Positions 25,275-58,069 of a stretch of DNA of 64,000 bases are shown one piece after another. A model generated the notes under the pieces. It searched no databases and was not told the origin of the DNA. It worked only from the letters and a program-made list of their open reading frames with translations. The stretch is from the sequence record OQ067374.1; one strand, written 5' to 3'. Origin of the DNA: Escherichia phage a20. Position numbers and translations under genes: made by a program. Positions within the stretch are counted from its first letter, which is position 1, and every line of letters begins with the position of its first letter.

Positions 25275-25463
25275 ATGTTTAAACTTCCATCGTTAATCAA
25301 CGCTATTAAAGGCAATAAAAAGAAAACTGCAATAGTTGTAGGTGGCATTATTTCATGGAACTTCGGGATTGCACCGTTGTTAGTTGCCCATGGTGTTATG
25401 GTTCCTTCTGTTCCATTGGATACTGTAGTTGATTTGGCCTTTGCTATTATAGGGCTTGTTTAA
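25275..25463 (+). CDS. small hydrophobic protein on the plus strand
   Basis: 62 aa; strong SD TAAGGAG 7 nt upstream; two predicted TM segments (AIVVGGIISWNFGIAPLLVAHGV / VDLAFAIIGLV). Confidence 0.55.
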   Translation: MFKLPSLINAIKGNKKKTAIVVGGIISWNFGIAPLLVAHGVMVPSVPLDTVVDLAFAIIGLV

Positions 25464-26482
25464 ATCTTCGAATAACGAGATAATCTCATTTTAGCATGCA
25501 ACCCACTTGAAATATTCTGTTTCATATATTCTAAAATTTCTTGTGGTGTTGCATTTTCTTTCATTACCATATCATTCACATCCTTTGATCTCCATGGAGC
25601 TCGGTCCCAGAACATGACACGTTCGTCTGCATCAACTAATCGCTTCATGCGAGCTATAGTATCCGGATGCCTAGGTTCATTATCCATTACCCATACCCGA
25701 CGTTCTTTAAATGGTACCACATCTAAATCTATTGAGCCGCCTGTAATAGCGATTGCATTGGGTATGAATAAACTATCAATAGGGCCTTCCATTACCCAGA
25801 CGTCTCCTTCCTTAACACGTTCAACACCATAAATTTTTGTTGCAGACTCAAACGCTTTAATAGTGATATATTTCTGAGGAGCATCTTTACGAAGTGCACG
25901 TCCTTGGAATGACTCAGCCTTCCCATCTTTATTAAAAATAGGAATCACTAAACGTGGTTCGTGGATCTCTTTCTTATACGTACCAGGTTGAATCTTGTTG
26001 ACCAATTTGGGCCATTCTAATGTGAACCATAATCTGTTCCATGATTCTTTAGGAATACACCGAGACTTAACATATTTCACAATAGGATGCTCTTCAGGCA
26101 ACTTGTCCAGACGAGAACAAGACGGCAAAGAATTTATAGTCTTTTTCTCTGGCTCCGGCTTAGCTTCAGGAACCTTTTCAATCTTTGGTTCCATTCTAGC
26201 TTTTTCTTTACGAACTTCCATTAGATATTCGCGATAAAGCTCTTCATCATACTCTTTTAAGTATCCGGAAATTGTATTGTGGTATTGACAGTTATAGCAA
26301 TGTACATTACCAGGAGTACCGCCATAATACCAACCGCGAGCTTTCATTGCATCTGTCTGAGAGTCGCCACAAACTGGACAACGAAACGTTAATTTAAATG
26401 TGCTTGAATTATTGATTTGTCTAAAACGAGGGAGGTGAGAAAACGCACGATAAGCAAATTCATTATCTATCCATTCAGCCAT
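25460..26482 (-). CDS. 61: DNA primase (gp61)
   Basis: 340 aa; N-terminal zinc ribbon CPVCGDSQTD...HCYNCQYH followed by TOPRIM-like region; T4 gp61 342 aa. Confidence 0.9.
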   Translation of the reverse strand: MAEWIDNEFAYRAFSHLPRFRQINNSSTFKLTFRCPVCGDSQTDAMKARGWYYGGTPGNVHCYNCQYHNTISGYLKEYDEELYREYLMEVRKEKARMEPKIEKVPEAKPEPEKKTINSLPSCSRLDKLPEEHPIVKYVKSRCIPKESWNRLWFTLEWPKLVNKIQPGTYKKEIHEPRLVIPIFNKDGKAESFQGRALRKDAPQKYITIKAFESATKIYGVERVKEGDVWVMEGPIDSLFIPNAIAITGGSIDLDVVPFKERRVWVMDNEPRHPDTIARMKRLVDADERVMFWDRAPWRSKDVNDMVMKENATPQEILEYMKQNISSGLHAKMRLSRYSKI

Positions 26483-26523
26483 AGTATTCTCCAGAGGCCT
26501 TAAATTAATTTAAGGCCATCATA

Positions 26524-27018
26524 TCACAACTTATTAATATTTACTTTAATTCGCTTTCTTTTCTTGGAAGGAATTTGGTCTGGACCTTTATTTACGACTG
26601 CACCTGTAGTTGTTCCTGATGCAATAGCTTGAGGACTGCCGCCTGAATCACCAGCAACCATATCCTCAAATAAAGGGAGTTCTTTAAATATTTCTTTCTG
26701 TTGTTCTTCCGTAATGTTATAGCGTGAAGCTACAGCACTCCAGGCAGACATCATTGAGGCCATTCCATTAAGACCCGGAACAGTGCTCATCATTCGCTTC
26801 ATTGAACGAACTGAAGCATGAAAAGGTGTATAAGCCGCTTTCTCTTCGGGAGTAGAAGGACGTTTAAGAACACTTCCACGTTCATCGATGATTTTGGCTT
26901 CGTATGCTTTCCATTCGGTAAAAGGTTTTTGCATTAGTCGAATAAACTTATATGCGTAAACAGAATCTATTGCAGTGTTAATAATACCCATAGGTACCTC
27001 CTGAGTATATTTAATCAA
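26524..27018 (-). CDS. hypothetical protein (61.1 position)
   Basis: ORF track, 164 aa. Confidence 0.5.
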   Translation of the reverse strand: MIKYTQEVPMGIINTAIDSVYAYKFIRLMQKPFTEWKAYEAKIIDERGSVLKRPSTPEEKAAYTPFHASVRSMKRMMSTVPGLNGMASMMSAWSAVASRYNITEEQQKEIFKELPLFEDMVAGDSGGSPQAIASGTTTGAVVNKGPDQIPSKKRKRIKVNINKL

Positions 27019-27208
27019 TTACAAAGATTGCTTTGTCACCATTTATATCTGTGACTTCATATGTAGTGCCTTCATACCGTGGAATATTCCAAATTACACC
27101 GTCATTAGCTTTTACGCTAATATGGCATTGGTGTTTTGAAACAACTTCATAATCTTCAAAACTTGTAAAAACACTAATTTTAGAACCAGTGCAAATTGCA
27201 GTAGTCAT
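27011..27208 (-). CDS. hypothetical small protein
   Basis: ORF track, 65 aa. Confidence 0.45.
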   Translation of the reverse strand: MTTAICTGSKISVFTSFEDYEVVSKHQCHISVKANDGVIWNIPRYEGTTYEVTDINGDKAIFVID

Positions 27209-27209
27209 T

Positions 27210-27869
27210 TTAACCTCGATTCATAAATGCATTAAATATTTGGTCATCAACAGAAATTTCTAATTCGACTTCAATTGCTTCGGCCTTTTCTTCAGGTGGT
27301 AATTCGTATCCACACACTACAATTTTTTCATCGATATCAAAATATACAGAAGCAATACGATTAATGTTATTTTCAGTTAAGTCTAAATCAACATCAACAT
27401 CTTTTTGACCTACACTTAAAGGATAACTAATACGGGTTATTTTATTATCTTTAACAAAGAGTCCACCAACATACTCTGTACTACGTTTGAAGTTTACACG
27501 TTTCCGAATTGAAAGATATGATGCATCTTTACCGTGAGCTCGGCTCATAGGACATAATGAATAGCTAGAATAAGAGATGTCAAATCCTACACCTTCAATA
27601 TGAGCCAACGTGTCATGATTAAACCAATTATAATCATATGCCAAATCCATTATATTGTAATATGTGAAAGGCACAGGATTAACATCATATGTTGTACCTT
27701 TAAAATCTGCCCAGGCAACGATTTCGTTATCTTTAACAATTACAAAAATTACACCGAGATGGTATCCGTTATTATTTTCATTCGGCGTTATATTATAACA
27801 TTGTGCATTAGGAAATTTACCATATTTAAATGGCGCATTTTTGTGCATATAATAAATCATATTATTCAC
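27210..27869 (-). CDS. hypothetical protein
   Basis: ORF track, 219 aa. Confidence 0.5.
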   Translation of the reverse strand: MNNMIYYMHKNAPFKYGKFPNAQCYNITPNENNNGYHLGVIFVIVKDNEIVAWADFKGTTYDVNPVPFTYYNIMDLAYDYNWFNHDTLAHIEGVGFDISYSSYSLCPMSRAHGKDASYLSIRKRVNFKRSTEYVGGLFVKDNKITRISYPLSVGQKDVDVDLDLTENNINRIASVYFDIDEKIVVCGYELPPEEKAEAIEVELEISVDDQIFNAFMNRG

Positions 27870-28155
27870 CTGTGATTTCGGTTACGATATCTTTGTTATC
27901 GAAATTAGGGTCACAATACAAAACATAGTTGTACTGCATGATACCGCCAGACTTAAGTTGTTCAACAACTTTATTAACCATATTAGGACGGTCTCGTTTA
28001 GTGATGTTCATGATATCAGAGAAGATTTGTTGTTCAACATCTTCTTGATTTGCAGTCATTGACCACTCACAGAGGTCTTTATCATAACCTGCCGTAACTG
28101 GAGCCGGTGCACATGATACTGCAAGTAAGATTGCTGCCAATGATAACTTTTTCAT
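27862..28155 (-). CDS. sp: periplasmic spackle protein (lysozyme inhibitor / superinfection exclusion)
   Basis: 97 aa; signal peptide MKKLSLAAILLAVSCAPAPVTAGYDKDLCEWSMTA...SGGIMQYNYVLYCD; recognised as T4 Sp (97 aa). Confidence 0.8.
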   Translation of the reverse strand: MKKLSLAAILLAVSCAPAPVTAGYDKDLCEWSMTANQEDVEQQIFSDIMNITKRDRPNMVNKVVEQLKSGGIMQYNYVLYCDPNFDNKDIVTEITGE

Positions 28156-28183
28156 TTTAACTCCTTAGTTGATTTGATAGGAC

Positions 28184-28214
28184 TACTATACTATAGTACA
28201 TCTATAATGTAAAC
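28184..28214 (-). promoter_or_regulatory. early promoter upstream of sp (-35 GTTTAC, -10 TATAGT)
   Basis: Plus text gactACTATActatagtacatctataatGTAAAC. Confidence 0.55.
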
Positions 28215-28218
28215 AAGT

Positions 28219-28467
28219 TTATTCTTTTTCGCGAATAATAATTACTTGTTGAGGCTGCTGAGCAGATTTCTTTTCGGCAACGATAGACCAAATTAAAGTT
28301 CCAATCCAACCAACCATCGTCCAGTTAAAGAGTAAAGATACAAAGAAGATTGCTGTTGTGCTTTTTGTGCCACGAATAAGTGCGATTACCCAAGGCAACA
28401 TGTAAATGATGATTGAACCAATACCTGCGATTAAAACTGCTACTGAACTAGCCACGAGTAATTCCAT
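28219..28467 (-). CDS. small inner-membrane protein (two TM segments)
   Basis: ORF track trimmed to MELLVASSVAVLIAGIGSIIIYMLPWVIALI... (82 aa) with SD AGAGGA. Confidence 0.5.
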   Translation of the reverse strand: MELLVASSVAVLIAGIGSIIIYMLPWVIALIRGTKSTTAIFFVSLLFNWTMVGWIGTLIWSIVAEKKSAQQPQQVIIIREKE

Positions 28468-28493
28468 GTTAATTTCCTCTTGATTTGTTATGT

Positions 28494-28526
28494 TTATAGT
28501 ATCTTGTTTTAACTTTGGTGTAACCA
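28494..28526 (-). promoter_or_regulatory. early promoter (-35 GTTACA, -10 TACTAT)
   Basis: Plus text tgtttATAGTAtcttgttttaactttggTGTAAC. Confidence 0.45.
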
Positions 28527-28527
28527 A

Positions 28528-28896
28528 TTAATTAAATTTGTTTAAACGTTCAATACACTGGACGTAGTTATTCGCGATTTGTTTCTGGGTAGGCTCTTTA
28601 CCAGTTGTTTCAACATAGCGAATGAATGCGATTTCAGTAGCCTGTAAGCAATGTTCTTTAACGCGTTGTTCTTTTGACAATGCTACAGTATCAGAGTCAC
28701 GATAACGTTGAGCATGGGCATCAGCTTGAATCATTCGATTACCTACAGTAACCGGGTCTTCCACTTCAACTTTAGGTTGGTCGTACTGTTTAACATTCGG
28801 ATTGTAAATCAGTTGGCCAACGTTATTAGGGATAAAGCCATGGGCACCACATCCTGTTAATCCAAATACCATTGCTAAAGCGATTAATTTTTTCAT
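28528..28896 (-). CDS. predicted lipoprotein
   Basis: 122 aa; MKKLIALAMVFGLTGCGAHG (signal peptide with lipobox LTGC). Confidence 0.6.
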   Translation of the reverse strand: MKKLIALAMVFGLTGCGAHGFIPNNVGQLIYNPNVKQYDQPKVEVEDPVTVGNRMIQADAHAQRYRDSDTVALSKEQRVKEHCLQATEIAFIRYVETTGKEPTQKQIANNYVQCIERLNKFN

Positions 28897-28922
28897 TTCA
28901 ATTTCCTCTGTAGTTGATAGAA

Positions 28923-28955
28923 AGATAGTAACACAGTATGTGGGGCTTGTAAACA
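28923..28955 (-). promoter_or_regulatory. early promoter upstream of lipoprotein gene
   Basis: Plus text aaagATAGTAacacagtatgtggggcttGTAAAC; approx coordinates. Confidence 0.5.
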
Positions 28956-28967
28956 GTTATTTTAAAA

Positions 28968-29156
28968 TTATCGAAAATCTGCTTCGAAAACTTTCTCGTC
29001 ATTAACAAATGCTTTAACTAATGCTTTGTTCACTTCAGCAAGTTGTACCGTAACCCACTCGATTTCTTCGCGATCACCTGATAACATCATATCTTTAGTG
29101 AACATCTCACCGCTTTTAAACCAACCGATAAAAGTAACTTTAGTTAATTTGCTCAT
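28968..29156 (-). CDS. dmd: Dmd-like antitoxin (discriminator of mRNA degradation; inhibits host RnlA/LsoA-type toxins)
   Basis: 62 aa from MSKLTKVTFIGWFKSGEMFTKDMM...AEVNKALVKAFVNDEKVFEADFR; recognised from T4 Dmd (60 aa); ATGA overlap with upstream gene. Confidence 0.65.
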   Translation of the reverse strand: MSKLTKVTFIGWFKSGEMFTKDMMLSGDREEIEWVTVQLAEVNKALVKAFVNDEKVFEADFR

Positions 29157-29470
29157 ATTTCCTCGCAAAATGCCCATTCAGCGTGATAAACTGTAGCGCC
29201 TTTAGTATCATTCATTTGAACTACATCTACCGGAGAAATTACTCGGTAGAGACGTGGTTCACCTCCATAAGAGCGTGCTGCTCGTCCTGCATAAATCTTT
29301 GCTAAACCGATATCTTCAGTAAAGAATACACGATCCAAGTTTTTCTTACGTCCAGTTTCAGACAGAACTCCTGTTTCTTCAGGAGGACAAAGCATGTTTT
29401 CGATGTTAGCTGAACTACTTGAACCGTGATAAAAAATCTTAAATTCTGCTTTACAATCGATGGTTTTCAT
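29153..29470 (-). CDS. hypothetical protein
   Basis: ORF track, 105 aa. Confidence 0.5.
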   Translation of the reverse strand: MKTIDCKAEFKIFYHGSSSSANIENMLCPPEETGVLSETGRKKNLDRVFFTEDIGLAKIYAGRAARSYGGEPRLYRVISPVDVVQMNDTKGATVYHAEWAFCEEI

Positions 29471-29494
29471 TTTGTTCTCCAGTAGTTGATAGGT

Positions 29495-29526
29495 CTATAA
29501 TAACACAACTACTGGAGAAGTAAACT
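29495..29526 (-). promoter_or_regulatory. early promoter (-35 GTTTAC, 17 nt, -10 TATTAT) within the loop of a 12-bp perfect inverted repeat that contains the downstream SD
   Basis: ctccagtagttg ataggtctATAATAaca caactactggag aaGTAAAC. Confidence 0.6.
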
Positions 29527-29900
29527 TAAAAACGTAATTTAGATATATCTGCGTTGATTTCGTTTTGGTTTGCGTCGTATGCAATTAAACGAACCGCTTT
29601 AGATGGGTCATTCAATGCATAGAAATGATGGAACATTGCTCGAACGATATCACCATTTACGAGTTCTACCTGGATAGGAGAACCTTTTTCGAGTTGGAAA
29701 TGTTCATAAGCTTTGATGGTTCGTAGATAATCAAGTTTTTGATTTCCGGCTCCAACTATTTGTACGATACGTTTGCCCATATTTTCCATACGAGATACAA
29801 TAGTTTTAGGAGCAAGAATAACGTAGGTTGCCAGTGGAGAAACTACTTCAACAGTTGTGTTTTCGGTGATTGCAGTAAAAATTGCTTGAGACATATTCAT
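29526..29900 (-). CDS. hypothetical protein
   Basis: ORF track, 124 aa. Confidence 0.5.
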   Translation of the reverse strand: MNMSQAIFTAITENTTVEVVSPLATYVILAPKTIVSRMENMGKRIVQIVGAGNQKLDYLRTIKAYEHFQLEKGSPIQVELVNGDIVRAMFHHFYALNDPSKAVRLIAYDANQNEINADISKLRF

Positions 29901-29959
29901 AATGTTTTCCTCTTGGTTGGTGTAAGTACATCATATCATGCCTAGAGGAAGATGTAAAC

Positions 29960-29990
29960 CCCGAAAGGAGACCGAAGTCTCCTTTTTATT
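29960..29990. terminator. stable hairpin immediately after gene 41 stop; U-tract is better on the plus-strand side, so orientation is ambiguous
   Basis: aggagac-cgaa-gtctcct followed by ttttt on plus strand. Confidence 0.5.
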
Positions 29991-31431
29991 AAAATTTTAA
30001 CTCATTGGCTAAGCTATCTAGGTCAGCACGTGTTGCTTTGGCTTTACCTACGCGTTCCGTACGATTCACCTCTGCCTGACGCATCTGAGCACCTGCGTTT
30101 TCATTTACTGTGTTAGGTGTGTTCATGCCTTCTTGCTCAATCTCAATCCATTTCTGGTTGCCTTTACGTACACCCATCAGGAATTTATTCCACTTATTCT
30201 TATCACCATATCGTGATTTGATTTGTTTGATAAGTTGTTGTTCAGCTTGTGCAAGTTCTTCGGTTTCAATTACGGCCAACATGAAATCTGCCGTTGCTGG
30301 TAAACCTGCTGATTCTGCAATATCGCTCATGTTCATATCCGAAGCATCCCATGCTGCACGTCCTACTTGAGCTGCAGTCCATAGAACTGTTTCAGATTCT
30401 ACTGCTAATGCACGAAGTTCTTCTGCGATAGCTTTAACTAATGTGTAGCTATTTTCAGTGTAAACTCTGATACGACAAGACCCACAAATACCTAAGTAAT
30501 CAACCATGATTACAGATGGCACAAAGTTCTTCTTAAGTTTTAACTCATTAAGCAATGCACGAAATGTATTAGCATTAGCTCCACCGGTAGGATACTGTTT
30601 AACTACTAAACGTCCTAATGTGGATTTTGAACGCCATTTTTCCATCTTGGCTTTATATTCAGCATAAGATACGTTACCATCATCGATATCATCAAGTGAT
30701 ACGTCAAGCATGTTTGCATCTATACGCTTAGCGCAAACTTCTTCAGCCATTTCCATGGAAATATAAAGAACATTATGACCTGTTTGAAGATAATCTGCAG
30801 CAAGTGAACAAAGGCCTAAAGATTTACCAACGTTAACACCGGCCATTAAAACATTCAGTGTACCGGTTTCAGCACCACCTTTAGTGATTTTATTCAGAAT
30901 GTTTAATTTGAACGGGACCTTACGTGCTTTATTTAGATAAGAAAGCCAGCGTGCTTCGTAGTCTTCCATCCAGTCATGTCCAACATAACTATCAAACGAA
31001 ATTGAAAGTGCTTGACGCATAATATCAGGAATAGCTCCTACATCAGGCATTTTCTTGTTACGTTGTTCTGGAGGTAGTTCAGCATTAGACTGAATCTCAA
31101 TGATTTTGGATGTAGCATTATACATCGCTTTTTGCTGGACATATTTCTCAGTTTCTTTAACCAACCATTCGTGGTCTTCAGGAGTATCAGCCAATTTTTC
31201 AATTAGGTCTGAAGTTCCTTTATATTCGGCTTCAGTTAAAGAACTGTTATCTAAAGCCACCTTTAATGCATTGATAGATGGCATTGCATTATATTCGTTA
31301 ACGTGGCTCTTTATAATTTTAAAGACATTTTTTGCCGGTCCACGCTCAAAATACTCAGAATCCATATAAGGCCAGACCTTAGAAAAATAAGCCTGGTCGT
31401 ATACTAGATGAGACAAAATAATTTCTACCAC
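29989..31431 (-). CDS. 41: replicative DNA helicase (DnaB-like, gp41); GTG start
   Basis: 480 aa; MVEIILSHLVYDQAYFSKVWPYMDSEYF...; Walker A GVNVGKS; T4 gp41 475 aa. Confidence 0.92.
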   Translation of the reverse strand: MVEIILSHLVYDQAYFSKVWPYMDSEYFERGPAKNVFKIIKSHVNEYNAMPSINALKVALDNSSLTEAEYKGTSDLIEKLADTPEDHEWLVKETEKYVQQKAMYNATSKIIEIQSNAELPPEQRNKKMPDVGAIPDIMRQALSISFDSYVGHDWMEDYEARWLSYLNKARKVPFKLNILNKITKGGAETGTLNVLMAGVNVGKSLGLCSLAADYLQTGHNVLYISMEMAEEVCAKRIDANMLDVSLDDIDDGNVSYAEYKAKMEKWRSKSTLGRLVVKQYPTGGANANTFRALLNELKLKKNFVPSVIMVDYLGICGSCRIRVYTENSYTLVKAIAEELRALAVESETVLWTAAQVGRAAWDASDMNMSDIAESAGLPATADFMLAVIETEELAQAEQQLIKQIKSRYGDKNKWNKFLMGVRKGNQKWIEIEQEGMNTPNTVNENAGAQMRQAEVNRTERVGKAKATRADLDSLANELKF

Positions 31432-33595: not shown

Positions 33596-34495
33596 TTATT
33601 CCTCGATTACGACATCTTCATATTTAGGTATATTATACGGTGAAGAAATTAAAGCATTAAAGTAGATGAACTCACCAAGACCTGGATGAAATACTTCTTC
33701 AGGATTTTCGAAATATTGAATCTTCGGACGTCCTTTAAGAATTTGATAGTATTCAGTTTTAGTTGGTTTAAAAATTCGAATCAACGCTTCTTCAGGATAC
33801 TTATTTCTGTCGAAGCTATTATTTGGATCGGTTATATAAAGCGGTTGGCCTAATTGAATTGCACATTCAACCACTTGTTCAAAACGATAGCATGGGTCAC
33901 TAATTCGAAATGGATGAAAAATACCATCTAGATGAATAGGAGCCAAATCACCTACAAGACGCTGCATGATGGAAGGACGTATAACTTTCTGCGTTACGAT
34001 AATCTTATTACCATCTGCACCTGCGTTAACCAGCACTTCTTTTTGACGTTCATTCAACACAGTAGTTTGAAGTGAACGATTAACCGACAACATATCGGTT
34101 TTTAAGAATTCGTCAATATAAAAACGTGGTTTATTAGGGTCTGCAGTGATATTGAAATTGAATTCTACATCAAAAGCGCCGTCATATCCGGTGATATCTG
34201 TGATTAGAAAATCACAATCATAATAAGCAATTAATGAATCAACCACAAATTCATTTTCAGTCCAGAAATATTTACGAGTGTTATACGCGTTATCTTTATA
34301 CCATAATGGAACAAACTTAAATTCTGGGAAAAGACGTTCACATTCTTTAATATCAGATGCATTACGTGGATATGTAATCACATCACCTGGATTAGCACGG
34401 TGCAAATGAAGTTGGAAGTTGCCATCCTTAAGGATAGCATACTGCCCAGTTTCATAAGACCGCATACTCAAAATAGGTACGCGGAAAATAGCCAT
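33596..34495 (-). CDS. protein of unassigned family occupying the T4 beta-glucosyltransferase position (candidate DNA-modifying transferase)
   Basis: 299 aa; no motif recognised; adjacent to the hydroxymethylase; T4 has bgt between uvsX and 42. Confidence 0.5.
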   Translation of the reverse strand: MAIFRVPILSMRSYETGQYAILKDGNFQLHLHRANPGDVITYPRNASDIKECERLFPEFKFVPLWYKDNAYNTRKYFWTENEFVVDSLIAYYDCDFLITDITGYDGAFDVEFNFNITADPNKPRFYIDEFLKTDMLSVNRSLQTTVLNERQKEVLVNAGADGNKIIVTQKVIRPSIMQRLVGDLAPIHLDGIFHPFRISDPCYRFEQVVECAIQLGQPLYITDPNNSFDRNKYPEEALIRIFKPTKTEYYQILKGRPKIQYFENPEEVFHPGLGEFIYFNALISSPYNIPKYEDVVIEE

Positions 34496-35211
34496 TAGTC
34501 AAGGAATCCTTTAACATAATCAAAATCACGTTCAAACACATGGGCACTTACCATGGTATGAGTATAATCACCAACTTCTACACCACATTCGTTAGCGATA
34601 TAATGAAGTAATTTTCCTTGGAGATAAAAATCCAACTGCATAACAACAGCACAGTTCTGAGAACGCATATGACAGTGGGTATAAAGCTTACCATCACGAA
34701 TATAATAAGTCACTGAGTCAGTACATGGATATTCAAGAGTTTCGTCCGAATCAAGCAAAGCCTGATCAGAACTTTCTAGAATTTGGAACACAACTCTTCG
34801 AGAGTTAGGCTTCTCTTTAAGTTCTTTTAGAAGAGCTGGTAATTGGGCCGCAATGCGAGGACCATAGAAAGTGTTGAAGTTCGCCGGCAAAACATCTGAT
34901 TTTGGTTTAGAAATAAATTTAGCGACATTAGGATATGCCTTAAACGCTTCTTCTGCGTTGGTACCACCAGAAATCATAAACTTCCAGAAGTCTTCGGCAT
35001 ATTCATAAGAGATGCGGTTAATACGTGGGTCAGTCATTTTGAATGATGATGGAGTGTCAACAACTACTGTCATAGACCCAATTTCATTACAACGTCCAAT
35101 ACGAGAATCAGTTACGAATTCCGGGTTTTCTAAAATTTCACGATTGACTGCTTTAAATGCGGTTTGAAAATCTGCGGCTTTGATATATTTCATTGTGTTA
35201 TGTTTTCCCAT
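34495..35211 (-). CDS. 42: thymidylate-synthase-superfamily pyrimidine hydroxymethylase (gp42-like, divergent)
   Basis: 238 aa; ...KPNSRRVVFQI...EYPCTDSVTYYIRDGKLYTHCHMRSQN... (catalytic Cys context and R-S-x-N/D region of TS/dCMP-HMase fold); position of T4 gene 42. Confidence 0.7.
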   Translation of the reverse strand: MGKHNTMKYIKAADFQTAFKAVNREILENPEFVTDSRIGRCNEIGSMTVVVDTPSSFKMTDPRINRISYEYAEDFWKFMISGGTNAEEAFKAYPNVAKFISKPKSDVLPANFNTFYGPRIAAQLPALLKELKEKPNSRRVVFQILESSDQALLDSDETLEYPCTDSVTYYIRDGKLYTHCHMRSQNCAVVMQLDFYLQGKLLHYIANECGVEVGDYTHTMVSAHVFERDFDYVKGFLD

Positions 35212-35253: not shown

Positions 35254-35493
35254 TTATTTGAATTTCTTAGCGATGTTGATATAACGTAAAGCTTCAGCAT
35301 CGATACTTCCAAGAACACTATGAAGAAATGCATCAGCGTAGTATTCCAATTGAACAGGTTCTTTAATCACTTTAGCCGCTTTGGTTCCAAACAGGCCCAT
35401 AAGGGCCTTTTTAAGAATTTGTTCATTAGTGTTCAGTTTCATAGTCAAAATCTCTTCATTAAGTTGGTGGTTAAAAGTTTTTCTAGAAATCAT
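35254..35493 (-). CDS. hypothetical small protein
   Basis: ORF track, 79 aa. Confidence 0.45.
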   Translation of the reverse strand: MISRKTFNHQLNEEILTMKLNTNEQILKKALMGLFGTKAAKVIKEPVQLEYYADAFLHSVLGSIDAEALRYINIAKKFK

Positions 35494-36650
35494 TCTGGGT
35501 ACCTCAAAGCGTCATCAGAGTTAGTTATATCAATAATAGATATAGAATTTTCTGATAACCCATTTTTAGATAACTGACGTTTATAATATCTTTCACAATA
35601 TGTACACGTCGTCCCGCAGATTTCATTAGCACAATCGAAATCTGGATGTCTGAACCACCTTTTTTCTAAAAAGCCATCTAACAAAGAGGTTTCAATATTT
35701 ACTGTATGTGAAAACTCAGTTTCGTTTTCAAGAGTGAAAATAGTCTCTAAAGGCTTCCACAGTTCTAACAAATTACCTTCAAACTTTTCAGAAGCGTATG
35801 CTTCAAGAACTTTCAAAATGTAGTCTGTGCTACCTGTACGTCCTGAAACTTTGAATTGAGTGATACCAATATCATTATAAAGTTTCAAATCTTGAGGACG
35901 AACAAAACGAGTTCTCAACCAGTTAAATGGGTCTGTATCACGAGCTTTAATGCAGTGTTGCATTGGATATCCGTTTAAGGATTTAGCATCATCAGCTGTA
36001 ACATCAGTACTATGGAAAATATAGCAAGAGTCACGATAGCTACAATGTGTTGTATACCCTTTACCAGCATTAGAACAGAACTCATTTACAAGAACTTCAA
36101 ATATTATATTGTTCTTATTGCAAAACTCTGCTGCACGCTTCAGGAAAGAAACTGAACGGTTCTTATGAATTCCACAGCAGACCTTTTTGATATTATATTG
36201 GTCATGCAAGTATTTGATTTGAGTTACAGCATCGACATGTAGAATTGTTGAAACTTCAATCTCAATGTCTTTATTGACTTCACGAACAATTTCCATAACA
36301 ACAGGGTTAGCGATAGTAATACGCCATACGCCTATTGACCAAAGATACTGAACATAATCCTGAATAGCTTTCTTCTTCCACTCAACTAGTTCTCTTTTTG
36401 AACCAGGATTTATCGTGTTGAGTGTATAGTTAAAGCAAATACCTAATTCGTTACAACGTTTAACGTAATCTTCTAACATCTTTTTGTCAACGTCAGGAAG
36501 CCTAAAATCAGGTCTGGCTGCTACAAAAGCCATTTCTCTTGTAGAGCCGTATACTTCGTTTATCAAGCTATTAGGATAAGTTTTATTGAGCTCTACGATT
36601 TTATCAAGAAGAGCTAAATCAAAATTCGTTCCAATTTTAAAAGTATTCAT
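35490..36650 (-). CDS. Cys-rich putative Fe-S enzyme of unassigned family
   Basis: 386 aa; clusters KKVCCGIH, EFCSNAGKGYTTHCSYRDSCY and C-terminal DCANEICGTTCTYCERYY (contains a CxxxCxxC spacing). Confidence 0.5.
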   Translation of the reverse strand: MNTFKIGTNFDLALLDKIVELNKTYPNSLINEVYGSTREMAFVAARPDFRLPDVDKKMLEDYVKRCNELGICFNYTLNTINPGSKRELVEWKKKAIQDYVQYLWSIGVWRITIANPVVMEIVREVNKDIEIEVSTILHVDAVTQIKYLHDQYNIKKVCCGIHKNRSVSFLKRAAEFCNKNNIIFEVLVNEFCSNAGKGYTTHCSYRDSCYIFHSTDVTADDAKSLNGYPMQHCIKARDTDPFNWLRTRFVRPQDLKLYNDIGITQFKVSGRTGSTDYILKVLEAYASEKFEGNLLELWKPLETIFTLENETEFSHTVNIETSLLDGFLEKRWFRHPDFDCANEICGTTCTYCERYYKRQLSKNGLSENSISIIDITNSDDALRYPE

Positions 36651-36707
36651 TTTTTTTGCATCTCACGTTAATTGATGCGATGGTTTTTGCAGGTCTTACT
36701 TAAATTA

Positions 36708-37097
36708 TTATAGATTCGGTTTATATGATTTAAATGTTTCGAATTCGCCTTTATTCATAAGAGCTTTGAATTCGTCAGGACGCATAGCTTTGTCGTCGAT
36801 AATCCAATCATATACTGGTTTATGTGTTAGCAAATTATGGTACTTCAAACCAATGTTTTCCAAGTTCTGAATCAGACTTGGGAGAATGTCAATTGCTATA
36901 CGTCCAGGACCTACTGACTTCATACCGCGAGCAGTGTAAAGCGTTATGGTATGCCCTGCATCATACAGAGCATTAATAGCAGTCACCATTTCGACGTCTG
37001 GTTTGAAGTTCACGTAATCACGATTGTTATTCCACTCTGTTATACAATCATCGACGTCCACGCAAAGATGTAATGGTTTCATAGCAATATCCTTCAA
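36708..37097 (-). CDS. small HAD-superfamily phosphatase
   Basis: 129 aa; motif I LCVDVDDCIT (DxDx[T/V]), ITLYTAR, and K...IIDD; start may be the ATG 15 nt downstream. Confidence 0.6.
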   Translation of the reverse strand: MKDIAMKPLHLCVDVDDCITEWNNNRDYVNFKPDVEMVTAINALYDAGHTITLYTARGMKSVGPGRIAIDILPSLIQNLENIGLKYHNLLTHKPVYDWIIDDKAMRPDEFKALMNKGEFETFKSYKPNL

Positions 37098-37809
37098 TAG
37101 AATTTTTAATATTATCAGCTATACGCTTTCTAGGAATACCCGTTTTCTTTTCAGCTATCCTAAGAGATTCATAGTAATTTTCGTTTATTTTAACAAATTT
37201 TTGAGACTTGTGAGCATTTTTGCTTTCGTCCTGATATCGATAATTAAGATATTTAGGCGATTTTACTCTCTTTTGAATCGTGGCAGAAGATATACCCAAA
37301 TCTTTAGCCGCTTCCCGACAGGATTCATAATATTTGCCATCTACATTAATCTTTAGACCATGTAATGCAGGTTTACCATACCTCCTGTGCTTTTCTTTAC
37401 CCCTAGCTATAGATTCAGCTGACAAAGTTTTACCCCATCTTGGGTTTTTATCACCAACTAAACGTCCTTTATTTGCCTTAGAAATTTTATCCTTGGACCT
37501 TTGGGATAACCCGTCAGAACCGCCTTCGCCACCAGTTTTAAGATTGTAATAATTTGGGTCTTTAACTATGTCTAATGTTATTAGAGCCTTTTCAGCTATT
37601 TTTAATTCTTCTCTCGAGCTATGGTAGGAAATGATTTCTTTAAGAAAATTTTCCTTCCCGTATTTCCTTTCAGCCTTTTTATATAATTTACCAGAACCTT
37701 TATATAAATCTAAAGGCTCGGCTTCTTCAGCCGAGTGCATTCCTAAATAAACTTTACCGTTTATAAGATTAGTAGTTTTGTAGAGATAATGTATCAAATT
37801 CGTTCCCAT
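37048..37809 (-). CDS. GIY-YIG homing endonuclease (Seg-like)
   Basis: 253 aa; N-terminal HYLYKTTNLINGKVYLGMHS...YKGSG (GIY-YIG module), basic DNA-binding C-terminal region; overlaps both neighbours. Confidence 0.8.
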   Translation of the reverse strand: MGTNLIHYLYKTTNLINGKVYLGMHSAEEAEPLDLYKGSGKLYKKAERKYGKENFLKEIISYHSSREELKIAEKALITLDIVKDPNYYNLKTGGEGGSDGLSQRSKDKISKANKGRLVGDKNPRWGKTLSAESIARGKEKHRRYGKPALHGLKINVDGKYYESCREAAKDLGISSATIQKRVKSPKYLNYRYQDESKNAHKSQKFVKINENYYESLRIAEKKTGIPRKRIADNIKNSIEGYCYETITSLRGRR

Positions 37810-39479
37810 TGATGAGTGATATCGCCACCGATTGGACGATAGGAAACACCAGTTTCTTTATCAGTTAGTACCCATTTACCAGGATTTTTTGTAATCAGAG
37901 TAGCCGTTACAGGTTCTGCTACGTCATAACTAATAGAGCCGTCTTGAAGTACACGGCCCATATTACGTAATTGCTTAGTCAGAAGTTCCATACCTTTATA
38001 ATATGCGGCTACCGCTTTAAGTGGATTATTCTTGAAATAACCACCTAATGCAATCCAGATAATTGCCACTGCCAAATGATGATACTCGTTAAACGAACTC
38101 ATCTTTCCATATTTGTAAACTAATGGATTGATGTTAATAGTCACATTACAAGTTGTTTCATCAATAGTAAACTGTCCCCAGGTCGGATTAGCATTGAATT
38201 CATCATAACCTGAAACAGCATAAAGCACTTTAGCTTCATCATACAATTTTGGCCCGTAAATCTTGGTTTCGCCAAAATATCCACGAGGGTCGATAAACTT
38301 AACTTCGCCGTTATCAGTAATCATAGTATTACTGAAGTTCGGGTCACCATGAATAACAGAGTACTGTCCCTGAGAACGGTTATGATAACGAATAAGATGT
38401 TCTAAAGCTTGTTTCAGCATTGGCTTCAGACGTCCAATCTTAGTGTAGTTCACATGTGTGATTTTACCAAATGAATCAATCAATGGTTGAATGCTTTCAC
38501 AACGATCAATAACTTTCGTATAGAATTCTTTAGTGAAATCACGACGAACAGTTTCAGGACTTACAAAATAAGTGTCTGTGCTGAATTTCAGTGCATCTAA
38601 AATTGTATCAACAATTTGTGGACGAGCAAGACTTGATTTGGATTTAATATATTCAAATGCCGGCTTACCTTTAATGCGTTCCATTTCAAAGTTATTTTCA
38701 TTAACAGAAACTAACTGAGGGACTGAATCTGATTTCACTTTCAAATACCACGAAATCTCATCTTTCTGAAGAGCTCGGCCCTGTTCGGTTAATGCGAATT
38801 TAGTTACAGTTTCTTCACCGATTTCAACTGCATTAAAACTACGATTAAGTTCACGAACTTCATGAGCTTTTTCAAGTTTAGGCATATCACCTAAATCAAT
38901 TAGATTCATAAGCTCTGATTTATTGAATGCGCCGCTGTAAAGGAATTCTACGAAATCACGTCCTTTGCAGTATTCATGAATTTCTTCATCAGTAGAACCC
39001 ATATAGAATTCCCAGTCTTTGAACTGATAAATTCCTACAACATTACCACCTGTTGAACCTACGTTAGTGATATTTTCACCGTCGAAATTATATCGACATT
39101 CGTCGCCCTTAACATAGATTGCGTTAACATTCCAAGACCATGAACCAAAATCGGGAATAATATCACACCAGTTAACAATTACATTATGGCCGTCTAAATC
39201 TTTGTGTAATTTAGCAAGAGCATAAGCAGATCCATACGCTTCATCAACTGTACGAATAGTCACATTGAACCCTTCTTGCTCACAATAAGCTCGAACAGTT
39301 TCAGCAAATTTTGAATGAACTACTACAATAATTTCATCTGCGCCTAGGTCAGAATAAATTGTATACAAATTGCTCAGAATAGTGTCTTGTTTATAGTTAA
39401 CAAGCACCTTAGGAATATGGTGAGTAATTGGATATAAACGAGTTGCCAGTCCAGCACCAAGAATAACAGCTTTTTTCAT
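37794..39479 (-). CDS. bifunctional sugar-1-phosphate nucleotidyltransferase (N-terminal) / APH-ChoK-type kinase (C-terminal)
   Basis: 561 aa; N-term MKKAVILGAGLATRLYPIT...PKVLV (G-x-G-x-x-R-L nucleotidyltransferase signature, LicC/RmlA-like); C-term HGDPNFSNTMIT...VKFIDPRGY (Brenner HxDxxxxN and DxxG of aminoglycoside/choline kinase fold). Confidence 0.7.
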   Translation of the reverse strand: MKKAVILGAGLATRLYPITHHIPKVLVNYKQDTILSNLYTIYSDLGADEIIVVVHSKFAETVRAYCEQEGFNVTIRTVDEAYGSAYALAKLHKDLDGHNVIVNWCDIIPDFGSWSWNVNAIYVKGDECRYNFDGENITNVGSTGGNVVGIYQFKDWEFYMGSTDEEIHEYCKGRDFVEFLYSGAFNKSELMNLIDLGDMPKLEKAHEVRELNRSFNAVEIGEETVTKFALTEQGRALQKDEISWYLKVKSDSVPQLVSVNENNFEMERIKGKPAFEYIKSKSSLARPQIVDTILDALKFSTDTYFVSPETVRRDFTKEFYTKVIDRCESIQPLIDSFGKITHVNYTKIGRLKPMLKQALEHLIRYHNRSQGQYSVIHGDPNFSNTMITDNGEVKFIDPRGYFGETKIYGPKLYDEAKVLYAVSGYDEFNANPTWGQFTIDETTCNVTININPLVYKYGKMSSFNEYHHLAVAIIWIALGGYFKNNPLKAVAAYYKGMELLTKQLRNMGRVLQDGSISYDVAEPVTATLITKNPGKWVLTDKETGVSYRPIGGDITHQWERI

Positions 39480-39520
39480 GTTGTGGTCCTCATTGGTAAG
39501 TAGGAGTATTGTACACTATT

Positions 39521-39664
39521 CTAGTTAAAGCATTCATACTTTGCTTGTAGTCCAATCATAATCCATCCAATTACAAGTGTTGGAATCATTACCGGAGCCG
39601 TTAAGCTCCAGTAGATAGTCATGACAAGCATCAATAGTAAAAGTCCTATTGCTATTGCTTTCAT
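39521..39664 (-). CDS. small hydrophobic membrane peptide (47 aa) between the sugar-isomerase gene and the fused kinase gene
   Basis: Hand-translated MKAIAIGLLLLMLVMTIYWSLTAPVMIPTLVIGWIMIGLQAKYECFN; TAATG overlap with SIS gene stop; imm-like position. Confidence 0.4.
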   Translation of the reverse strand: MKAIAIGLLLLMLVMTIYWSLTAPVMIPTLVIGWIMIGLQAKYECFN

Positions 39665-40296
39665 TATTCGCCTCGTAACATGGCACCTAGTGCACCACCA
39701 GGGTGGAACTTAAGGAAATCATTAGAGGTAAATCCACGTTCAGACGAAAGGTTGATAGCAAACGTATCGATAAGCGCTAACAACAATGTAGTGGACATAG
39801 TCGGAGCCAGAGAATTCTCATCAACCTCTACTGCGATGCCTGTACAGAAAGAGTAATCAAAAAGGGCTTCATTTTCTTGTGGAATGTCTGGGTTACAATG
39901 CAACAGAATCTGTTTGACGTTCGGACGAATCATTTTAAGATGCTTAGCCACGCCTATCATTTCTTCAGTTTTACCAGAACGACTAATATGAATCAACACA
40001 TCATTAGGCGCAATGAATCCTGCATCACCGTGAGAATAATGCCCAGTGTTCAAGTACATACTCGGGATACCTAGTGAAGCAAAAGTCTCGGAAGCTTTAG
40101 TTGCGATATTAGCATTCTTACCAACACCTGTAATAATTACTCGGCTTTCATAATTACTAAGTCCCGGGCGTCGAAGAGTTTCTAGAATAGCATTATAACG
40201 AGCAGGGTTTTGACTAATTACTTTGGCCATAGCGGCCAAAGAAGAAGCTTGTTTTATGATTGCGTCAATAGCGATAGTAATAGGAGTAGTTTTCAT
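39664..40296 (-). CDS. single-domain SIS sugar-phosphate isomerase, KdsD/GutQ-type (arabinose-5-phosphate isomerase-like)
   Basis: 210 aa; VIITGVGKNANIATKASETFASLGIPSMYLN...SHGDAGFIAPNDVLIHISRSGKTEE...LAPTMSTTLLLAL...GFTSNDFLKFHPGGALG closely parallels KdsD core motifs; lacks CBS domains. Confidence 0.8.
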   Translation of the reverse strand: MKTTPITIAIDAIIKQASSLAAMAKVISQNPARYNAILETLRRPGLSNYESRVIITGVGKNANIATKASETFASLGIPSMYLNTGHYSHGDAGFIAPNDVLIHISRSGKTEEMIGVAKHLKMIRPNVKQILLHCNPDIPQENEALFDYSFCTGIAVEVDENSLAPTMSTTLLLALIDTFAINLSSERGFTSNDFLKFHPGGALGAMLRGE

Positions 40297-40336: not shown

Positions 40337-43048
40337 TCAAAAATCGAACATATCGAACAGAGATGCTTTCTTCTCGTAATCGAGTTTCGCTGCTGATGTG
40401 AATCCTTCAAGTGGTTTAATAAATGTCTTCTCAAGGAGAACAGTGTAGTCCATCCAATGAAGTACGTCGTCTTTAATTAAATCTGTGATTTCAGTGCCAG
40501 AAGGCCATGCGATACATTTATCACCGAATGGGTTTCCTTCACGTAAAGGCAGAACATATACTTTTTCACCTTCTACAACTTGCGGTGCATCGATATTACC
40601 TTTGATAGCCCGGTTATATGTCAGAATTCCACGAATATGGAACGGACATTTGGGACCAGGGAATCCACCTACGTCATATTTAGCAATGTTATTCGCAGAA
40701 GATACCGACGCGATGCTAATATAATTCAATTGGCGGAATTCTTTTTCAAACTCTTTAAAATATTCTTGTAATGATTCTTCACCTTCTTGAAGCATACGAC
40801 GAATACATTCTTTAAGAGCTTTCTGTACTGCTTTAGGAGTCGAAGATTTCTGTGTTTCGAGACCCATGATTTTAAGCTTAGGTTCAGCGTATCTGGTTCC
40901 TTCCATATCCCACACGTTTAATGCATAACGTTTCTTACCAGTCCAGAATCCACCAATACCTTTAGAACCGAGCGGAGGACCAGCGATAGCTTCTCGGTCC
41001 ATGAACATCAAATGTTGCTTATTATTCATGTATTCGCACATTTCACGGAAACCTCTATCAATAGCAGGTTCCATACGTTCACGAGCGAACTTATCTAAGA
41101 AGTCTACCCAATGGTTGGTATCACGGAATTTAGATTCACCAACCTTATCGATAATTTTATCAGCAGATACGTAAATAGAGTCTGTATCACCATATAGAAC
41201 GAAAGCTTCACCTTCTGTACCACAAACTTCATTCAGATATTCATTAACTTTACGTTCAATCCACTGTAAAGCCATTTGACCAAATGTTGTGATTGCAGTA
41301 GCATTACGCAAATCATAATAACGGAACCAAACGTTGCCAAGTGCACCATAAAGTGAGTTGATAAGCAATTTACGGTTAATCTGTGCAGTCATACCTGCAA
41401 CTTCAGTACGTTGAGCTCTAAACAACATTTCATTAAGAGATTTAGCAGACAACTTTTTAATCTTTTCTTTAATCTCATCACTGAAGTCGAAACGATAATC
41501 AACATCTAATGGTTCGTCAACAGAAAGATTAGGATTATGCAATGCCTCTTTAATTATTTCACCATTACGTTGAGCTGCAAGCATGTAACCTTTATGTTCT
41601 TTACGTTGATTAAAGACCTTAGTGATTTCAGTTGGAACTACACCATCACGGTCTTTATAATACATCATGCCGTTAGGAGAGCAACTGTACACATCTGAAG
41701 GACGTTCAGCGATTGCGTTAATATAATCATGCAGTGGAGCTACTTTAAACGTTCCTGCTATTGTTTCCGGGCTAATATTCACTTGGCGAATAATACTTGG
41801 ATACAGAGATGTAAGGTCGAAACTCATTACATATTTGTATCGATTTGGAATAGGTTCCTTAACAAAAGCGCCAGGATAAGGTTGAACCGGGTGAGAACGA
41901 CCTTGTGGAATCACCTTGTTCTGCTCTTTAAGGCTATTAAAAATAATAGCATCCCATGTTTTAATTGGACTGAACACAGATTGAATCTGAATTTTAGCAT
42001 AATAACCCATGTCCAAGCTCAAGTTAATGAACTGGCGTTTAGCATCAATTTGCAATACACGATATACGTCGATGATGTTATAGCTTATATATCGTTGATG
42101 ATTACTTTCGCGAAGTTTAGAAATAGGACCGTCATATTTCAGTTTACCAACGTTCAATTCAAATTCTGAAATGTAATCCAGAGAATACGACGGTTGATTG
42201 GTAAAAGAGAATTTTTTGTAAAGGTCAATGTAATCAAGAACAGAGATACCGAACAATGTAATGATTTCACGAGAACCATACATGTTTTCGATAACTTTAA
42301 CACGAGTTTTACGATGCGGTGATAAACGTTTCGCAGTAGATTCGCCAAAAATATTCTTGATTCGGTTATACACATATGGAATATCAAATGACTCAACGTT
42401 CCATCCAGTCAAAATGACAGGAGTTTTCTGTTGCCAGAAGTTGAGATATTCCATCAACAATTCTTTTTCGTTATCGAACGGCATATAAATGATTTTATCG
42501 ATAATTTCAGATGGAACTTCATCACCGCCTTGTTCTTGAAGCTTAGCAGCGATTTCAATAGACCATTCTTCTACATTACCATACGGAGAATTCAATAGAT
42601 CAAATACGTAGAACCTGTCGTCAATTGAGTCATAATGGGTGATAGCATCAATCGGATGTTTTGCTTGTGACGGCTCAGGGAACCCATCCGGAGATGTTAC
42701 TTCGATGTCGAAGTTAGCCACACGAATTTTTGTATGGTCGTATTTGATTTCATAGTTATAAGTGTCAGACAAATACGCCAATTTGAAATCGTCCATGCCA
42801 AGTGCTTCAAGTCCGATATCTTCCATGCGTTTAATCCATTGGGAGGCATCACGCATATTAGCGAACAACTTACGAGTACACGGTTTACCGTAGATATCGA
42901 AATATTTCGTAGCCTGACTTTCTGGACAATGAGCAAACAGTGATGGTTTATATTCTACTTCACGAGTACGTTCACGGCCATTAGAATCGATGTAACGTTC
43001 AAAAATTGAATCACCAATCTGTTCAACCGTTAAGTAAAATTCTTTCAT
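40337..43048 (-). CDS. 43: family-B DNA polymerase with 3'-5' exonuclease (gp43), RB69-type
   Basis: 903 aa; exo motifs FDIEV / YNIIDV, polymerase motifs DxxSLYPS, K(x3)NSxYG, YGDTDS; N-terminus MKEFYLTVEQIGDSIFERYIDSNGRERTREV. Confidence 0.97.
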   Translation of the reverse strand: MKEFYLTVEQIGDSIFERYIDSNGRERTREVEYKPSLFAHCPESQATKYFDIYGKPCTRKLFANMRDASQWIKRMEDIGLEALGMDDFKLAYLSDTYNYEIKYDHTKIRVANFDIEVTSPDGFPEPSQAKHPIDAITHYDSIDDRFYVFDLLNSPYGNVEEWSIEIAAKLQEQGGDEVPSEIIDKIIYMPFDNEKELLMEYLNFWQQKTPVILTGWNVESFDIPYVYNRIKNIFGESTAKRLSPHRKTRVKVIENMYGSREIITLFGISVLDYIDLYKKFSFTNQPSYSLDYISEFELNVGKLKYDGPISKLRESNHQRYISYNIIDVYRVLQIDAKRQFINLSLDMGYYAKIQIQSVFSPIKTWDAIIFNSLKEQNKVIPQGRSHPVQPYPGAFVKEPIPNRYKYVMSFDLTSLYPSIIRQVNISPETIAGTFKVAPLHDYINAIAERPSDVYSCSPNGMMYYKDRDGVVPTEITKVFNQRKEHKGYMLAAQRNGEIIKEALHNPNLSVDEPLDVDYRFDFSDEIKEKIKKLSAKSLNEMLFRAQRTEVAGMTAQINRKLLINSLYGALGNVWFRYYDLRNATAITTFGQMALQWIERKVNEYLNEVCGTEGEAFVLYGDTDSIYVSADKIIDKVGESKFRDTNHWVDFLDKFARERMEPAIDRGFREMCEYMNNKQHLMFMDREAIAGPPLGSKGIGGFWTGKKRYALNVWDMEGTRYAEPKLKIMGLETQKSSTPKAVQKALKECIRRMLQEGEESLQEYFKEFEKEFRQLNYISIASVSSANNIAKYDVGGFPGPKCPFHIRGILTYNRAIKGNIDAPQVVEGEKVYVLPLREGNPFGDKCIAWPSGTEITDLIKDDVLHWMDYTVLLEKTFIKPLEGFTSAAKLDYEKKASLFDMFDF

Positions 43049-57898: not shown

Positions 57899-58069
57899 TT
57901 AGTAAACGTTATAAAAGTTACGATGAGAACGTTTAGCTTTGCGAAGCTGACGTTTAGTAGGACGAACTGTAAATGGTTGTCCGGAGAAAAAATTCGGATC
58001 GGTTTTAATAAGCAAATACCAATCATGCTTGCCATTTTTTAATAAACGGTACAATAATTTAACTTGCAT
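57899..58069 (-). CDS. possible small basic protein (56 aa)
   Basis: Hand-translated MQVKLLYRLLKNGKHDWYLLIKTDPNFFSGQPFTVRPTKRQLRKAKRSHRNFYNVY. Confidence 0.3.
   Translation of the reverse strand: MQVKLLYRLLKNGKHDWYLLIKTDPNFFSGQPFTVRPTKRQLRKAKRSHRNFYNVY

Follow-up and report, generated by a model that had tools for sequence, protein, structure and literature searches.

The segment between the primase gene 61 and the helicase gene 41 of Escherichia phage a20 (sequence record OQ067374.1) carries the genes sp, imm, imm.1 and dmd; hereafter, "the window" is the whole stretch of 64,000 nucleotides (nt) that was analysed. We consider it very likely that this is an early-transcribed accessory segment of a Mosigvirus, placed between the replication genes 41 and 61 and made of already-named genes that act independently of each other. 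This reading is built on the gene identities, the gene order, the promoter-like sequences, the export signals and the relocation of one gene pair, all of which come from the analysis itself. A first-pass annotation, made from the sequence without database searches, had placed four open reading frames (ORFs) between primase and helicase, and the ORF list agrees: all four lie on the minus strand, which holds all the genes in this part of the window. The same annotation had suggested that the group is a module of superinfection exclusion and counter-defence. Genes of both kinds are indeed combined here, but in T4 they are found at different loci, which weakens the idea of a coherent unit, and the impression given by the region is that of an accessory segment of variable content rather than a fixed functional unit.

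A 3-kb query around the locus matched 359 phage records, the top one being Escherichia phage NRG-P0074 (99.5% identity over the whole length). About 150 records were at least 95% identical over at least 80% of the query, and gene order was inspected in NRG-P0074 and RB69. The sequence places phage a20 in Mosigvirus, among the RB69-like T-even coliphages. In RB69 (NC_004928, RB69p035-p040), which belongs to the same genus and has these genes on the same strand, the order is 41, ORF041c, ORF040c, dmd, 61.4, imm.1, imm, sp, 61.2, and the flanks of dmd and imm.1 align nearly base for base with those of the window. Because the RB69 GenBank record already names imm and imm.1 at the same position as in the window, the dmd-imm.1-imm-sp cluster is already known and annotated.

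The family calls were made with Pfam, where all four proteins scored above the curated gathering cut-offs, and PHROGs were concordant; NCBIfam gave no match for the sp, imm, imm.1 and dmd proteins or for ORF105, the ORF upstream of dmd. The spackle protein recognized in the first pass is present: Sp matches PF25676 T4_Spackle (1.1e-42, 145 bits against a cut-off of 27, residues 1-96 of 96 covered) and phrog_1586, and is 66% identical to T4 Sp (tblastn). It aligns over its full length with PDB 6x6o (phmmer, 1.4e-39), 7cn6 being a further solved Spackle relative, and in the alignment to 6x6o it keeps Cys29, Cys81 and the gp5-contact residues listed by Shi et al. (PMC7677548), namely S32-M33-T34-A35, Q37 and the Asn of QYNY (N76). 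The N-terminus is hydrophobic by hydropathy, and a signal peptide is predicted, with cleavage after A22 as in T4. In T4, Sp blocks the gp5 lysozyme of incoming phages (PMC7677548), and the Sp of phage a20 is predicted to be exported to the periplasm and to inhibit gp5, the tail lysozyme.

Imm matches PF14373 Imm_superinfect (1.8e-15, 56.9 bits against a cut-off of 27.9) and phrog_1039 (1.1e-30). It is 65% identical to T4 Imm over the full 83 amino acids (aa) (tblastn, 6.8e-32) and 99% identical to RB69 Imm, with 24 invariant columns across seven genera or lineages. The first pass had described this product as a protein with two transmembrane segments, and two hydrophobic segments were found, with Kyte-Doolittle 19-residue windows of at least 1.6 starting at residues 1-16 and 40-41 (a hydropathy calculation, not a topology predictor); basic residues lie at 32/35 and 66/67. 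A longer form of imm with a TTG start (28219-28527) was rejected, as the ATG start has a good ribosome-binding site (RBS) and matches the annotation of RB69 and NRG-P0074. T4 genetics shows that Imm and Sp stop the genome translocation of secondary phages (PMC6832632), and by homology the Imm of phage a20 would block DNA entry by superinfecting T-even phages.

The Dmd-like protein is likewise confirmed. Dmd matches PF17587 (2.7e-20, 72.9 bits against a cut-off of 27) and phrog_2102, and is 56% identical to T4 Dmd. Among solved structures, it matches PDB 5i8j (phmmer, 5.8e-36), with 59 of 62 residues identical, and 5hy3_B, "Antitoxin Dmd" (2.8e-17); the 5i8j sequence has the three substitutions that separate RB69 Dmd from the Dmd of the window. 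For this gene too a longer form, of 69 aa (to 29177), was discarded in favour of an ATG start with a good RBS that agrees with the RB69 and NRG-P0074 annotation.

The last of the four proteins, Imm.1, matches PF17578/DUF5481 (3.7e-9, 37.3 bits against a cut-off of 27) and phrog_1754 (5.1e-29), and is 32% identical to T4 Imm.1 (tblastn, 3.1e-15). The LTGC lipobox reported in the first pass lies at residues 13-16, with the predicted lipidation site at Cys16, after a basic and hydrophobic N-terminus (MKK...), and Gly is found at +2. That annotation had considered the membrane protein and the lipoprotein not assignable, a view that has to be given up, since they are Imm and Imm.1, both named in RB69.

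Early transcription is suggested by promoter-like sequences. The published T4/PST-like early consensus is TTTACW-N17-TAYWAT (PMC4122927), and we scanned the whole window for GTTTACW-N17-TAYWAT, allowing one mismatch. This gave 15 sites, all of them in minus-strand orientation, where 1.4 ± 1.2 would be expected. Such sites lie directly upstream of sp (28185-28214; GTTTACA-N17-TATAGT, followed by an AAGGAG RBS), of imm (28496-28525; the near-consensus GGTTACA-N17-TACTAT with an RBS, under the threshold of a generic sigma-70 scan) and of imm.1 (28925-28954), and another precedes ORF124, the first gene after gene 41. The site and leader of imm.1 read CTGTTTACAAG...TACTAT...CTATCAACTAC, a motif that also precedes imm.1 in T4. 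The first-pass statement that most of the genes have their own early promoter fits these data as far as promoter-like sequence goes, with three of the four genes (sp, imm and imm.1) preceded by a site and dmd by none. The genes would be transcribed early by the host RNA polymerase.

Some of these sites are associated with stem-loops of the promoter-early stem-loop (PeSL) type. A PeSL-type element precedes ORF105 (at 29471-29525, within the stretch 29466-29530), with a 14-bp stem around the promoter (DNA fold of -12.7 kcal/mol, z = -4.98); the promoter-like site itself lies at 29524-29497 and has a 16-nt spacer (GTTTACT-N16-TATTAT). At 29901-29988, after gene 41, a GGAGAC-UUCG-GUCUCC terminator hairpin is followed by the promoter before ORF124, placed in a second stem (z = -4.05). 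A 33-nt repeat is common to the leaders of ORF105 and imm.1. The sites of imm.1, imm and sp are promoters without a significant stem-loop.

One sign that this is not a fixed unit is the relocation of imm.1 and imm. T4 has the order 43, imm.1, imm, 42, with the cassette about 6 kb from sp, unlike in the window, where imm and imm.1 each occur once and lie beside sp. A second imm at the T4-type position was searched for in the 42-43 interval of the window and was not found. Gene 42 (dCMP hydroxymethylase-like) lies at 34495-35211 and gene 43 at 40337-43048; the interval between them (35254-40296, minus strand) is occupied by U32-peptidase-like, GIY-YIG/NUMOD homing endonuclease, 561-aa NTP-transferase and SIS-domain (arabinose-5-phosphate isomerase-like) genes, which may be sugar-nucleotide genes for RB69-type DNA hypermodification. 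The same interval contains, at 39521-39664 (minus strand) and adjoining the neighbour of gene 43, a 47-aa hydrophobic ORF that is 54% identical (1.9e-14) to a 49-aa T4 ORF overlapping the end of imm. In the RB69 annotation the corresponding ORF is described as "similar to T4 42-imm intercistronic region", and we read the 47-aa ORF as a relic that shows where, near gene 43, imm.1-imm used to lie. Because imm.1 and imm are present as single copies beside sp, with a relic at the old site and a promoter and leader shared with T4, the promoter-imm.1-imm unit must have moved as a block. In other Tevenvirinae (Dhakavirus, Gaprivervirus and Gelderlandvirus) imm is found beside gene 43 or 42, and therefore the position adjacent to sp looks derived.

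Imm.1 is the little-studied member of the pair. The literature gave a single relevant mention, PMC5885020, in which Imm.1 is listed as a T4-group marker with an exclusion role "to be proven". Clustered at 90% identity, Imm.1 gave three and then six clusters among 5.8 billion proteins in two word-indexed searches, and six representatives when 1.84 billion were searched exhaustively with a profile; neither bacterial relatives nor informatively named homologues were found in those protein searches. On this basis Imm.1 appears to be a tiny family restricted to T-even-type phages. Among phage records, tblastn found it in 656, of which 154 have the window type and 502 the T4 type, and found Imm at 60% identity or more in 657. 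In every examined locus having imm.1 (T4, RB69, the window, three metagenome contigs and SEA1), it lies directly upstream of imm; in the window the gap is 60 nt, with both genes on the same strand. The imm.1 of Salmonella phage SEA1 (Gelderlandvirus) encodes a 148-aa lipoprotein with an LAGC lipobox and matches the same PHROG at 1.5e-45. A third lineage of Imm.1 (P0002 and P0005; positions 4001-4372 of one of the metagenome contigs) is 46-48% identical to the Imm.1 of the window and has the T4-type order 43, imm.1, imm, 42.

A canonical lipobox is also found in the Imm.1 of T4, SEA1 and P0128, while that of P0129 is non-canonical (VTTGC), and Asp occurs at +2 in no Imm.1 lineage. According to the +2 rule of E. 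coli, Gly rather than Asp at this position leads to outer-membrane sorting of the lipoprotein. Imm.1 is thus probably a periplasm-facing lipoprotein, anchored in the outer membrane by the +2 rule. Cys83 and Cys114 (numbering of the window protein) are kept in all the full-length members aligned. In the AlphaFold model (AF2), built on a shallow seven-sequence alignment, residues 1-58 have a predicted local distance difference test (pLDDT) score below 50, and two helices (75-98 and 104-120) form a hairpin with a pLDDT of about 85.

Our best guess, and a purely inferential one, is that Imm.1 assists, tunes or gives specificity to Imm-type exclusion. The stronger proposal that it is a third component of T-even superinfection exclusion, travelling with imm as a promoter-bearing cassette and tuning or widening what Imm excludes, is a tentative one, less probable than not. 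Equally, Imm.1 could possibly, if somewhat doubtfully, have nothing to do with Imm exclusion and be an independent envelope factor (a T5 Llp-like protein masking a receptor or porin, or a periplasmic inhibitor of a host enzyme) that merely shares the imm promoter. Such a role is consistent with a predicted exported protein having a lipobox, two conserved cysteines and a small helical domain, with the existence of imm without imm.1 in some genera, and with the divergence between T4 and the window, which is much faster for Imm.1 (32% identity) than for Imm (65%), a pattern typical for proteins that keep pace with a variable partner. However, imm.1 is immediately upstream of imm in all the contexts examined and moved with it to the new locus, and neither the profile search nor Foldseek against PDB showed Imm.1 to resemble Llp or known inhibitors in sequence or fold. 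If the partnership with Imm is true, it could help to explain how Imm blocks DNA entry, and Imm.1 is a cheap and well-defined experimental target for work on this block.

The first-pass annotation covered the four genes and omitted the coupling of ORF105 to dmd, the presence of adfA directly downstream of sp, and the absence of tifA. As for the first, the stop codon of ORF105 overlaps the start of dmd (ATGA, gap of -4), dmd is without a promoter-like site of its own, and the two genes would belong to the same transcription unit, with a single upstream promoter-like site. ORF105 is a minimal ADP-ribosyltransferase (ART)-fold protein by fold comparison; it had no Pfam match and no PDB sequence match up to E = 10. 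Its residues H15, Y60 and E103, candidates for a catalytic H-Y-[EDQ] triad, are invariant among the homologues in a sequence alignment. More than 149 homologues with 60-99% identity were found in many T4-like genera.

This arrangement resembles a predicted toxin-antitoxin pair of Escherichia, Shigella and Salmonella phages, "p0068-family ART + Dmd" (Iyer, Burroughs & Aravind 2022, PMC9503650), in that an ART-fold gene lies directly upstream of, and overlaps, dmd in an Escherichia phage. ORF105-dmd is presumably this pair; what the analysis supports for ORF105 is the ART fold. The two genes differ from a strict pair in that they often occur separately in the present distribution data. Indeed, homologues of ORF105 are found in 609 phage records, including phages of Aeromonas, Acinetobacter and Klebsiella, groups in which Dmd was undetected by tblastn and in which, at three inspected loci, the downstream ORFs had no Dmd Pfam match. 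Dmd is found in 800 records, and its set of taxa is largely different from that of the ART; about 570 of the Dmd records have less than 60% identity, and they are mostly T4-like.

It follows from these distribution data that the activity against RnlA and LsoA is retained as the main role of Dmd. The targets of T4 Dmd shown experimentally are host RnlA and LsoA, and by orthology with T4 the Dmd of phage a20 would mainly neutralise these HEPN RNases. The inhibition of RnlA by Dmd is summarised in PMC9391042. A reading in which Dmd serves chiefly, or in addition, as antitoxin to ORF105 of the same phage, the pair being a toxin-antitoxin-like module and Dmd not simply a factor against RnlA and LsoA, seems unlikely to us, and a genuine phage-borne ART toxin/antitoxin pair is kept as a second, smaller possibility. 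The overlap of the two genes, the lack of a dmd promoter, the invariant H15, Y60 and E103, the recurrence of the adjacency in RB69 and in Dhakavirus IME281 and the explicit proposal cited above all agree with such a pair, but the co-occurrence is loose, T4 has Dmd without ORF105, and ORF105 is strongly conserved across genera, which is unusual for a toxin.

Under our preferred reading, of an accessory segment whose genes act independently, the products would work as follows. ORF105 and dmd would be expressed as a translationally coupled pair driven by the promoter and stem-loop element, and Dmd, a small cytoplasmic protein, would bind and block RnlA and LsoA once their labile antitoxins vanish after host shut-off. 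Imm would enter the inner membrane via its two hydrophobic segments and keep the DNA of later T-even phages out of the cytoplasm. Imm.1 would be exported and lipidated at Cys16, and a flexible linker of about 45-60 residues and the helical hairpin with Cys83 and Cys114 would reach into the periplasm. Sp would be secreted to the periplasm, where it would inhibit the tail-tip lysozyme gp5 of incoming phages. The adjacency of these genes would come from accretion and shuffling of promoter-bearing cassettes in a hyperplastic region, not from their being parts of one machine.

Some observations weigh against this picture. The biochemical activities are all carried over from T4 and RB69 homologues, and the promoters were recognized by their match to a consensus rather than from mapped starts of transcription. 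For Imm.1, the P0002 and P0005 lineages are without the lipobox Cys and have a signal-peptidase-I-type signal instead (cleaved after AHA), therefore not every member of the family is lipid-anchored. Furthermore, the model of Imm.1 is a generic helical hairpin with no fold match in Foldseek against PDB (best E = 3.6). Finally, Dhakavirus and Gaprivervirus have imm without imm.1, and imm alone on a plasmid reportedly excludes T4 (work attributed to Lu and Henning in 1989), therefore Imm.1 would not be strictly needed for the function of Imm.

The opposite explanation, in which the imm.1-imm-sp linkage is adaptive and forms a co-regulated superinfection-exclusion supermodule with a three-layer barrier (outer membrane, periplasm and inner membrane), is in our opinion quite improbable: the three genes are contiguous in the window and RB69, have complementary predicted locations (from the lipobox followed by Gly at +2, from a Sec signal peptide and from two transmembrane segments) and are each preceded by an early-promoter-like site, but core genes separate imm.1-imm from sp in T4 and related Tequatroviruses, where exclusion still works, the content of the region differs between close relatives (tifA and the Dhakavirus ORFs discussed below), and the phenotypes of imm and sp mutants are said to be separable (reportedly by Cornett in 1974 and Obringer in 1988, both cited in PMC7677548).

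The features of the locus are collected in Table 1. The plus-strand ORFs of the region were rejected as genes: they are short, embedded in minus-strand genes and without family support. A search of 26400-30100 on both strands against Rfam gave no RNA element, with one chance-level miRNA match well under the gathering score.

Table 1. Genes and spacers between helicase gene 41 and primase gene 61 of phage a20, in the direction of transcription (positions in the window)
Feature	Position	Strand	Length and assignment
gene 41 (helicase)	29989-31431	-	480 aa
ORF124 (= RB69ORF041c)	29526-29900	-	124 aa, phrog_10668
ORF105 (= RB69ORF040c)	29153-29470	-	105 aa, ADP-ribosyltransferase fold
dmd (gp61.5)	28968-29156	-	62 aa, PF17587
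dmd-imm.1 spacer	28897-28967	-	early-promoter-like site and 5' untranslated region of the imm.1-imm cassette
imm.1 (lipoprotein)	28528-28896	-	122 aa, PF17578
imm.1-imm spacer	28468-28527	-	promoter-like site and RBS
imm (two hydrophobic segments)	28219-28467	-	82 aa, ATG start, PF14373
imm-sp spacer	28156-28218	-	promoter-like site and RBS
sp (spackle, gp61.3)	27862-28155	-	97 aa, PF25676
adfA (gp61.2)	27210-27848	-	212 aa, PF23813
61.1-like ORF	27011-27208	-	65 aa
ORF164	26524-27018	-	164 aa
gene 61 (primase)	25460-26482	-	340 aa

Among the neighbouring genes, the product of adfA (anti-DarT factor A), immediately downstream of sp, matches PF23813 (7.6e-120) and has Arg at residue 164, counted from the MHKN start. 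Arg164 is the RB69-type allele, which does not neutralise DarT1 (PMC11257639); it predicts that phage a20 is sensitive to DarTG1, provided that no other factor (AdfN, for example) is intact.

Gene 61.4 of T4 is tifA, which encodes a ToxN inhibitor (PMC9391042) and whose product matches Pfam DUF7279. RB69 has tifA (about 205 bp) between dmd and imm.1, and the gene is cleanly absent from the window at 28897-28967. In some other Mosigviruses the matches are split in two pieces around about 206 extra bases at the tifA site, so that tifA appears polymorphic within Mosigvirus. Elsewhere in the window (57899-58069, minus strand), beside an endonuclease VII-like gene, a 56-aa ORF matches DUF7279 (1.1e-14) and has the basic motif VRPTKRQ[IL]R, as in the TifA of T4 and RB69; it may be a TifA paralogue able to compensate for the loss of tifA. 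The sensitivity of phage a20 to ToxIN and DarTG1 can be predicted from its tifA status and from the Arg164 of AdfA, respectively, which matters for host range and for the choice of phages for therapy.

The gene 41 terminator is followed first by ORF124, a gene with an early-promoter-like site of its own, no family match beyond the PHROG given in Table 1, no hint as to function, and no counterpart at that place in T4. ORF164, annotated with 155 aa in NRG-P0074, as a whole matches phrog_2086, and parts of it match phrog_1823 and phrog_18642. At this place RB69 has two genes, 61.1 and ORF032c, and the window has a single ORF; either this is a fusion in the window or the gene was split in RB69.

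Compared with known systems, the segment differs in gene content from its closest well-studied relatives. In T4, dmd directly follows gene 41, with neither ORF124 nor ORF105, and tifA fills the gap between dmd and sp; the orthologues of sp, imm, imm.1 and dmd are nevertheless all present there, with the same early-promoter type. In Dhakavirus, other ORFs lie between dmd and sp. PeSL elements have been described as shuffling elements of T4-type phages (PMC2839356, PMC4122927). The locus of phage a20 departs from them in having no stem-loop at the imm.1, imm and sp sites, and a role of PeSL elements in the relocation of imm.1-imm is something we infer. It resembles them in the TTTACW-N16/17-TAYWAT promoters set within a stem-loop before ORF105 and ORF124 and in the leader repeated between ORF105 and imm.1. 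With these promoter stem-loops and the shared leader repeat, the region is typical of the hyperplastic regions, with shuffling of cassettes, that Krisch and colleagues have described.

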